Shown here: positions 24,110 through 24,419 of the stretch, piece after piece
How the letters are laid out: each line of letters opens with the position of its first letter
How positions within the stretch are numbered: the first letter of the stretch is position 1
The notes under the pieces: generated by a model
Database searches by the model: none
What the model was told of the DNA's origin: nothing
Seen by the model: the letters and a program-made list of their open reading frames with translations, nothing else
Origin: a virus
Taxonomy: Duplodnaviria; Heunggongvirae; Uroviricota; Caudoviricetes
DNA length: 32,733 nucleotides
Virus record (IMG/VR): IMGVR_UViG_2654587685_000006
Reading direction: 5' to 3' (one strand)
Translations under genes and position numbers: made by a program

Positions 24110-24184
24110 TGGAGCGGGTAGCGGGAATCGAACCCGCATCATCAGCTTGGAAGGCTGAGGTAATAGCCATTATACGATACCCGC
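24110..24184 (-). tRNA. tRNA-Gly (anticodon UCC)
   Basis: GCGGGTATCGTATAATGGCTATTACCTCAGCCTTCCAAGCTGATGATGCGGGTTCGATTCCCGCTACCCGCTCCA; 7-bp acceptor stem, anticodon loop CUUCCAA, encoded CCA. Body close to E. coli glyT as I recall it. Confidence 0.85.
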
Positions 24185-24187
24185 ATA

Positions 24188-24263
24188 TGGTGCCGACTAC
24201 CGGAATCGAACTGGTGACCTACTGATTAAAAGTCAGTCGCTCTACCTACTGAGCTAAGTCGGC
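24188..24263 (-). tRNA. tRNA with anticodon UUU (Lys-decoding by anticodon; body resembles a tRNA-Thr scaffold)
   Basis: GCCGACTTAGCTCAGTAGGTAGAGCGACTGACTTTTAATCAGTAGGTCACCAGTTCGATTCCGGTAGTCGGCACCA; clean cloverleaf, anticodon stem ACTGA/TCAGT, loop CUUUUAA, discriminator A, encoded CCA. Confidence 0.75.
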
Positions 24264-24265
24264 AC

Positions 24266-24342
24266 TGGCCCGCCACCGAGGACTCGAACCTCGCACCATC
24301 AACTTAGAAGGTTGATGCTCTATCCGGATGAGCTAGTAGCGG
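24266..24342 (-). tRNA. tRNA-Arg (anticodon UCU)
   Basis: CCGCTACTAGCTCATCCGGATAGAGCATCAACCTTCTAAGTTGATGGTGCGAGGTTCGAGTCCTCGGTGGCGGGCCA; anticodon loop CUUCUAA; reads AGA/AGG. Confidence 0.85.
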
Positions 24343-24343
24343 C

Positions 24344-24419
24344 TGGTGGCCCTTGCTGGATTTGAACCAGCGACCTGGCGATTATGAGTCGCTCGCTCTC
24401 ACCACTGAGCTAAAGGGCC
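24344..24419 (-). tRNA. tRNA-Ile2-like (anticodon CAU, probably lysidine-modified to read AUA; Met not excluded)
   Basis: GGCCCTTTAGCTCAGTGGTGAGAGCGAGCGACTCATAATCGCCAGGTCGCTGGTTCAAATCCAGCAAGGGCCACCA; body resembles E. coli ileX/ileY-type tRNA as recalled. Confidence 0.8.

Follow-up and report, generated by a model that had tools for sequence, protein, structure and literature searches.

Phage-encoded tRNAs that replace host tRNAs depleted by a defence nuclease are well established, as with the tRNA-Lys of T5 against PARIS and phage tRNA-Thr against P2-OLD (PMC11464382, PMC12409363, PMC12445682). tRNA-Lys(UUU) is a prime target of AriB, the nuclease of PARIS, and the target of PrrC; substitution U39A, A41C or U16C blunts AriB, which also reads elements beyond the anticodon arm. 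The main recognition cues of PrrC lie in the anticodon stem-loop, and isolated stem-loop analogues are cleaved. Lambdoid phages have their classic enemy in P2-OLD. It favours thrU because of the paired CNG motifs at 28–30 and 40–42, A37 and the full-length stem, and extra host thrU does not rescue cells from it (PMC12445682).

Changes of tRNA identity through the anticodon have been described elsewhere. In the tRNA gene recruitment of Saks, Sampson & Abelson 1998, in the part presented in PMC3923123, a single change at position 35 moves a tRNA between the families Thr(UGU) and Arg(UCU) and leaves it functional. There, a tRNA-Arg gene given the anticodon UGU made up for the deletion of thrU in E. 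coli. Alloacceptor remolding in mitochondria and eukaryotic nuclear genomes likewise combines duplication with anticodon mutation, leaves a tRNA that resembles another acceptor family more than those sharing its anticodon, and is detected by synteny (PMC4783518, PMC3923123). Closest in genomic setting are the rare-codon tRNA arrays of Stx and related lambdoid phages, such as ileZ-argN-argO in 933W and ileZ-argO in phiP27. They follow Q and a methylase and precede the genes for toxin cargo and lysis.

The array analysed here occupies the same site in a lambdoid prophage, on a 32,733-nt stretch of viral DNA that we call the window. It has the ileZ- and argO-type genes in common with 933W and phiP27 but adds a host-derived thrU–glyT pair, the thrU copy of which no longer reads a rare codon. 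ARAGORN detects four tRNA genes and no more in the 32.7-kb window; all of them lie on the minus strand and match Rfam RF00005 at 55.6–74.2 bits (E values of 1e-9 to 1e-14). The coordinates and gene count in an earlier note on this DNA were exact; the strand, which that note had not given, is minus, and the array order is the order of transcription (Table 1). Each gene encodes its CCA end, and the spacers in the order CAU–Arg–UUU–Gly are 1, 2 and 3 nt. The CAU tRNA, identical to a gene annotated by PGAP as tRNA-Ile in related genomes, is predicted to read AUA once lysidine-modified.

Table 1. Features of the tRNA array and its surroundings, in transcription order (window coordinates)
Feature	Position	Strand	Basis or remark
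Q-like late antiterminator (DUF1133 / Phage_antitermQ)	26098..26652	minus	Pfam
Terminator-like hairpin between Q-like gene and methylase	25665..25682	minus	candidate tR′ of the late operon
DNA N6/N4 methyltransferase, directly upstream of the array	24469..25518	minus	Pfam PF01555, E 2.9e-44
tRNA CAU, ileZ/ileX-like (tRNA-Ile2), array gene 1	24344..24419	minus	ARAGORN; Rfam 72.5 bits
tRNA-Arg(UCU), argO-like, with A20, C35 and G73, array gene 2	24266..24342	minus	ARAGORN; Rfam 55.6 bits
UUU tRNA, thrU-derived, array gene 3	24188..24263	minus	ARAGORN; Rfam 74.2 bits
tRNA-Gly(UCC), glyT-derived, array gene 4	24110..24184	minus	ARAGORN; Rfam
Non-coding stretch from tRNA-Gly to first holin ORF	23697..24109	minus	four terminator-like hairpins in it or at its edge
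Lysis cassette: Phage_holin_8, Phage_holin_3_7, M15 peptidase endolysin	22608..23696	minus	Pfam

Along the minus strand, the Q-like gene is followed by the methylase, the tRNAs, about 410 nt of non-coding DNA, two holin genes, the M15 endolysin gene and then the terminase, portal, tail and other structural genes, so that the array sits, as had been proposed, between a methyltransferase gene and the lysis cassette. Among complete genomes, E. coli TW10690 has the nearest related prophage, with 98.3% identity across 93% of the first 25 kb; there the methylase counterpart is annotated as a DNA-methyltransferase; the methylase–tRNA region is common to the window, phiP27 and Stx2 phages. No sigma-70-like promoter site was seen directly upstream of the array. 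Because of this, and because a terminator-like hairpin follows the Q-like gene, the UUU tRNA would be transcribed as part of a Q-dependent late transcript, from which RNase P and 3′ processing would cut it.

The third tRNA is a thrU derivative with a changed anticodon. It is identical to host thrU at 74 of 76 positions, the only differences being A26G and G35U, the latter in the middle base of the anticodon, whereas identity is 54/76 with K-12 lysT and 50/76 with thrT. Mismatches to lysT are concentrated in the acceptor stem (2/7 and 2/7 identical) and the T-arm (11/17). The gene thus combines thrU descent and a glyT neighbour with loss of the thrU-family anticodon UGU (G35), and the lysT-family anticodon UUU and discriminator A73 with a body that is not of the lysT type. 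Sister alleles at the same array position are identical to thrU over all 76 nt. The Gly tRNA differs from host glyT only at pair 6–67, where C–G has been replaced by U–A with pairing preserved, and thrU and glyT belong to one host operon, thrU-tyrU-glyT-thrT-tufB. The near-identity to thrU, the likeness to glyT and their common operon had all been put forward in the earlier note, and all three hold; the competing possibility of an ordinary tRNA-Lys isoacceptor does not.

The fold is equally clear. The covariance model places UUU, and no other triplet, at positions 34–36 in a 7-nt loop, CUUUUAA, with U33 and a purine at 37. The score of 74.2 bits, against an RF00005 threshold of 29, is not lowered relative to host thrU (73.8 bits). 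Minimum-free-energy folds of the single sequence are non-cloverleaf for the UUU tRNA and authentic thrU alike and so carry no information here; the structure is judged by the covariance model. The sequence hallmarks of an alloacceptor anticodon shift, namely synteny with another family, a substitution that changes the codon family and an intact structure, are therefore all present. Two other origins were rejected: the allele recurs in 13 independent assemblies besides the window, which speaks against sequencing error, and the UUU gene on an Arg scaffold that lies next to it in related arrays was no donor for gene conversion, since the anticodon stems differ, UCAAC/GUUGA versus ACUGA/UCAGU.

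The history begins with the capture of thrU together with glyT. Compared with the host operon (locus L004, 1002–1361), the phage cassette (window 24110–24263) has lost exactly tyrU plus 124 nt of spacer DNA, altogether 209 nt, and TAT alone separates the two genes. Of 5,426 complete E. coli genomes, 822 have this thrU-TAT-glyT junction (CACCA|TAT|GCGGG) without tyrU, with 984 copies among them, and it also occurs in five deposited phages and in more than 120 IMG/VR contigs; the cassette is widespread in lambdoid and P27-like E. coli prophages. Its recurrence in nearly a thousand prophage copies implies what was presumably a single capture or deletion event. In one lineage, G35 of the captured thrU copy then changed to U, along with A26G. 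We accordingly read the UUU tRNA as a natural Thr-to-Lys alloacceptor shift of a captured thrU gene, a case of ‘tRNA gene recruitment’ that is likely charged with lysine and probably persists as a neutral or slightly costly hitch-hiker instead of serving in counter-defence, and we assign this reading a probability of roughly 0.6.

As in the work of Saks and colleagues, in the part presented in PMC3923123, the change falls on position 35 and involves the thrU family; here, however, the switch is natural, lies on a prophage-borne duplicate and leads from Thr to a predicted Lys function. Compared with alloacceptor remolding (PMC4783518, PMC3923123), the duplicate arose by phage capture of a fragment of a host operon; the host still has its own copy, so that the new identity adds to existing tRNAs and replaces no lost gene. 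Literature searches found no prior description of a natural anticodon-switched thrU in phages. Natural and datable changes of amino-acid family by one mutation are rare in bacteria, and we found none described in phages. The ancestor (host thrU), the unmutated sister alleles and the carriers are all known in this case, which makes the rules of the identity switch, the role of A26G and the cost of lost ACA supplementation directly testable.

What would the altered tRNA carry? Lysine charging is predicted because the bacterial LysRS identity set, A73 with U34, U35 and U36 (Giege & Eriani 2023), is complete and the ThrRS determinant G35 is gone. The listed LysRS antideterminants G2·U71 and U30·G40 are absent. 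E. coli suppressors with U35 insert lysine, and UUU placed in other tRNA bodies confers Lys identity in a human system; LysRS activity is lowered by A73 substitutions and by missing modifications. Most likely, the UUU tRNA accepts lysine and reads AAA and AAG.

The bacterial Thr identity set consists of acceptor-stem pairs together with G35 and U36 (Giege & Eriani 2023), and part of it, G1–C72, C2–G71 and U36, remains in the UUU tRNA. The tRNA might thus still be charged with Thr through its acceptor stem and insert Thr at AAA and AAG, an option raised in the earlier note, and expression restricted to the late operon could hide the resulting toxicity in lysogens. With G35 lost, however, such charging is improbable to begin with, and proteome-wide misreading of Lys codons as Thr should be harmful, yet the allele persists in several backbones and remnants. 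Studies by Hasegawa in 1992 and by Schulman and Pelka in 1990 are also reported to show that E. coli ThrRS depends chiefly on the anticodon bases of tRNA-Thr. We consider missense decoding very unlikely.

Codon demand offers no reason for a Lys tRNA. When phage late genes were compared with a 50-kb K-12 sample, Lys codons stood at 46.2 versus 45.4 per 1000, so codon supply was discarded as an explanation. The codons of the ancestral array, by contrast, are 2–5x enriched in the late genes: per 1000, ACA occurs at 11.5 versus 5.5 in the K-12 sample, AGA at 4.2 versus 1.5, AGG at 4.5 versus 0.9, AUA at 5.4 versus 2.6 and GGA at 12.2 versus 6.2. The earlier note had suggested such a count for AAA/AAG, AGA/AGG, AUA and GGA. 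Because ACA is enriched and Lys is not, the UUU mutation exchanges a useful ACA decoder for a redundant one: supplementation of ACA by the ancestral thrU copy would be forfeited, and the lysine role would duplicate that of the host tRNA-Lys(UUU) genes, of which there are five in the one K-12 locus examined. The UUU allele is most probably neutral or slightly costly, persisting by hitch-hiking and not as a specialised counter-defence.

The lack of codon demand could also be turned the other way. A Lys decoder on a non-Lys body might be invisible to a nuclease specific for tRNA-Lys and so sustain late translation when host tRNA-Lys is destroyed. Replacement of nuclease-depleted tRNAs by phage tRNAs has its precedents in PARIS and P2-OLD, tRNA-Lys(UUU) is a prime victim of AriB and the one that PrrC attacks, and a Lys tRNA unexplained by codon demand calls for some reason. 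Like the T5 tRNA-Lys(UUU), -Thr and -Asn that act against AriB (PMC11464382, PMC12409363), the UUU tRNA is phage-encoded and carries the anticodon of a host tRNA targeted by defence; like the phage tRNA-Thr(UGU) that acts against P2-OLD (PMC12445682), it has the thrU scaffold, the prime P2-OLD target in the conflict between lambda and P2. The acceptor stem and T-arm differ strongly from those of lysT, AriB reads beyond the anticodon arm, and UUU has appeared on two different non-Lys scaffolds within the array family. Conceivably, the UUU tRNA would escape a nuclease that recognises tRNA-Lys by its acceptor stem or T-arm.

All published determinants, however, predict sensitivity. The UUU tRNA retains U16, U39, C40 and A41 and the stretch U36AAUCA41, all found in the two best AriB substrates; AriB also cleaves the thrU body itself efficiently. 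It also keeps C28-U29-G30 and C40-A41-G42, A37 and five Watson–Crick pairs in the anticodon stem, the preferred P2-OLD substrate, and looks like a better one than lysT. Its anticodon loop is identical to the tRNA-Lys loop seen by PrrC. Nuclease-resistant phage tRNAs, in contrast, carry U39A, A41C or U16C, or altered CNG motifs with a shortened stem, and the window tRNA has none of these. Judged by sequence, it is not a lysT-family tRNA-Lys and fails the tests for an anti-PARIS and for an anti-OLD tRNA. On these grounds we rejected the idea that known determinants would let it evade AriB, P2-OLD or PrrC, and the defence-escape role that the earlier note had proposed is unsupported. The rarity of the allele (0.6% of cassettes), together with its occurrence in remnants that have no lysis or structural genes in four of six complete-genome carriers, also speaks against counter-defence, which we hold to be quite improbable.

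The distribution of the UUU allele was surveyed with a seed query matching only with U at position 35. It returned 6 of 5,426 complete E. coli genomes and 7 IMG/VR contigs, with the reservation that in 36-nt seed censuses of this kind any allele that differs further within the 28-mer seed goes undetected; INPHARED phages, GTDB species representatives and JGI metagenomes yielded none. The strains are 720632, TW10690, O6:H16 2014EL-1346-6, L1_E925, E1316 and E1739. The isolates with source data, six in all, came from human stool, and strain names and sources suggest ETEC. In an unselected IMG/VR sample of 117 listed cassettes, 67 thrU copies equal the host gene and one carries A26G with G35U. 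The closest whole-prophage relatives and more than 99% of cassettes keep UGU, and tRNA-Thr stands at this site in the closest relatives of the window prophage. Whether an identical gene was already annotated as a standard tRNA-Lys, as the earlier note had asked, has a divided answer: automatic PGAP annotation names it so in six E. coli chromosomes, but no deposited phage carries it. A caution for annotation follows, as six RefSeq genomes label the UUU gene as an ordinary tRNA-Lys.

Every carrier has both A26G and G35U, and no intermediate was found. At 99.6% identity or more, all of them also share a segment of about 460 nt downstream of tRNA-Gly, which includes the non-coding stretch at 23697–24109; non-carriers do not share it. 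Their surroundings are otherwise varied: the methylase lies upstream in most and Q directly adjacent in two, several show a divergence of about 7% in the lysis genes, the second tRNA gene is either Arg(UCU) or degenerate, and in four of the six complete genomes the prophage has decayed at ompW to a remnant without lysis and structural genes. Because both substitutions and the ~460-nt segment are common to the carriers while their backbones differ, the allele arose once and was then moved, or inherited, as a module; it persists across at least three prophage backbones.

Relaxed constraint on the thrU copies is evident from the same 117-cassette sample, in which at least 25 distinct substitutions occur, including at the conserved U8, A14, G19 and G57. 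With that many, a chance hit in the three anticodon positions is expected (about 0.6), and drift under relaxed constraint is sufficient to explain the UUU allele. The same evidence is compatible with outright loss of function, in which neither ThrRS nor LysRS charges the UUU tRNA efficiently, or expression is poor; it would then be in effect a null allele of the phage thrU copy that drifts in prophages under relaxed selection. The neighbouring Arg-scaffold gene is decaying in many arrays, where it has C33 or U8C and scores below the Rfam threshold, the prophage is a defective remnant in four carriers, and the promoter-like site looked for directly upstream of the array was not found. Against a null allele stand the intact cloverleaf, with scores on a par with host thrU, the full complement of known positive LysRS determinants with none of the known antideterminants, and the Lys identity of UUU transplants in the human system and of U35 suppressors in E. 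coli; we judge loss of function unlikely. Two observations, besides the persistence across at least three backbones, might instead point away from drift. The linkage of A26G with G35U, without a detected intermediate, could reflect tuning, and the other position-35 changes in the array family may mean that anticodon switching, to UUU in particular, is favoured.

Position 35 has changed three times in the array family: G35U and G35C on thrU, and C35U on argO. Changes at position 34 or 36 on the thrU scaffold were not found in IMG/VR. The G35C allele, a thrU body with anticodon UCU annotated as tRNA-Arg and followed by glyT, occurs in phage SerU-LTIIb (KU052038; L011 2765–2840, minus strand) and its host, E. 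coli strain 41 (NZ_CP076285, ~2038477). In SerU-LTIIb it also carries U16C, U20C, G24A and A31G and scores 57.5 bits in Rfam; it is the mirror image of the Saks 1998 experiment as far as that is presented in PMC3923123. Its charging with Arg, without the ArgRS determinant A20, is uncertain. A second, unmutated thrU(UGU)-glyT copy lies 1.9 kb beyond it.

The C35U allele on the argO scaffold also carries U33C and G73U (loop CCUUUAA, anticodon UUU, U73) and is found in 747 of 5,426 E. coli genomes, including E2348/69. It is the majority allele of the second tRNA of the array (L002 and L003, 4078–4154; L005, 5896–5972; equivalent to window 24266–24342). Of the sampled rows, roughly half have a PGAP annotation of the gene as tRNA-Lys and the others have none; some copies, which also carry U8C or a mismatch in the T-stem, score under the Rfam threshold. 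The gene has C16 and is without the AriB site and without CNG motifs. It may represent a pseudogene, or else a Lys-reading tRNA of an unusual type.

Some unswitched thrU copies carry changes of the kind that matter to the nucleases. U16C in the D-loop impairs AriB cleavage of tRNA-Lys, and thrU is itself a prime AriB target; U16C is present in 35 of the 117 sampled IMG/VR prophage thrU copies (30%), 24 of which have the exact U16C+U20C haplotype (loci L020–L137), and the two copies of SerU-LTIIb (L011, 2765–2840 and 859–934) are listed with this observation. These copies may be anti-PARIS alleles of a host-derived tRNA, and no prior description of them was found. Five of the 117 combine G42C/U with U43C, which removes the C40-A41-G42 CNG motif, unpairs 28–42 and 27–43 and shortens the anticodon stem. 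They match the two-factor signature of P2-OLD-resistant phage tRNA-Thr (PMC12445682) and lie in lambdoid prophages, which P2-OLD attacks in nature, whereas the 57% of sampled copies that equal host thrU are non-protective against it (PMC12445682). The larger pay-off may lie in the prophage thrU copies with recurrent substitutions of the kind shown to blunt P2-OLD and PARIS. Conceivably, non-Lys scaffolds are turned again and again into Lys(UUU) decoders in lambdoid E. coli prophages, as spares for when PARIS, PrrC/RloC, P2-OLD or another nuclease destroys the host tRNA-Lys. We give this little credence; if true, the kit would comprise the thrU-based UUU tRNA of the window, the argO-based C33/UUU gene and the U16C/U20C and G42/U43 alleles of thrU.

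Several features of the wider locus were noted in passing. The non-coding stretch at 23697–24109 holds several terminator-like hairpins and no ORF; phiP27 has stx2e at the equivalent site, and in SerU-LTIIb, an LT-IIb phage, the thrU-glyT cassette and a holin gene are duplicated in the matching region. To us the stretch looks like an empty toxin-cargo site. The ompW-site remnants (L005, L007, L008 and L009, 2648–4152) have a serine/threonine kinase and PP2C phosphatase pair between Q and the methylase, upstream of the array, which is absent from the window. Finally, a full-length sok antisense RNA (Rfam RF01794, 121.6 bits) matches window positions 29512–29687 on the minus strand, and related prophages have an annotated hokD gene at the matching place; the early region thus appears to carry a hok/sok type I toxin–antitoxin module.
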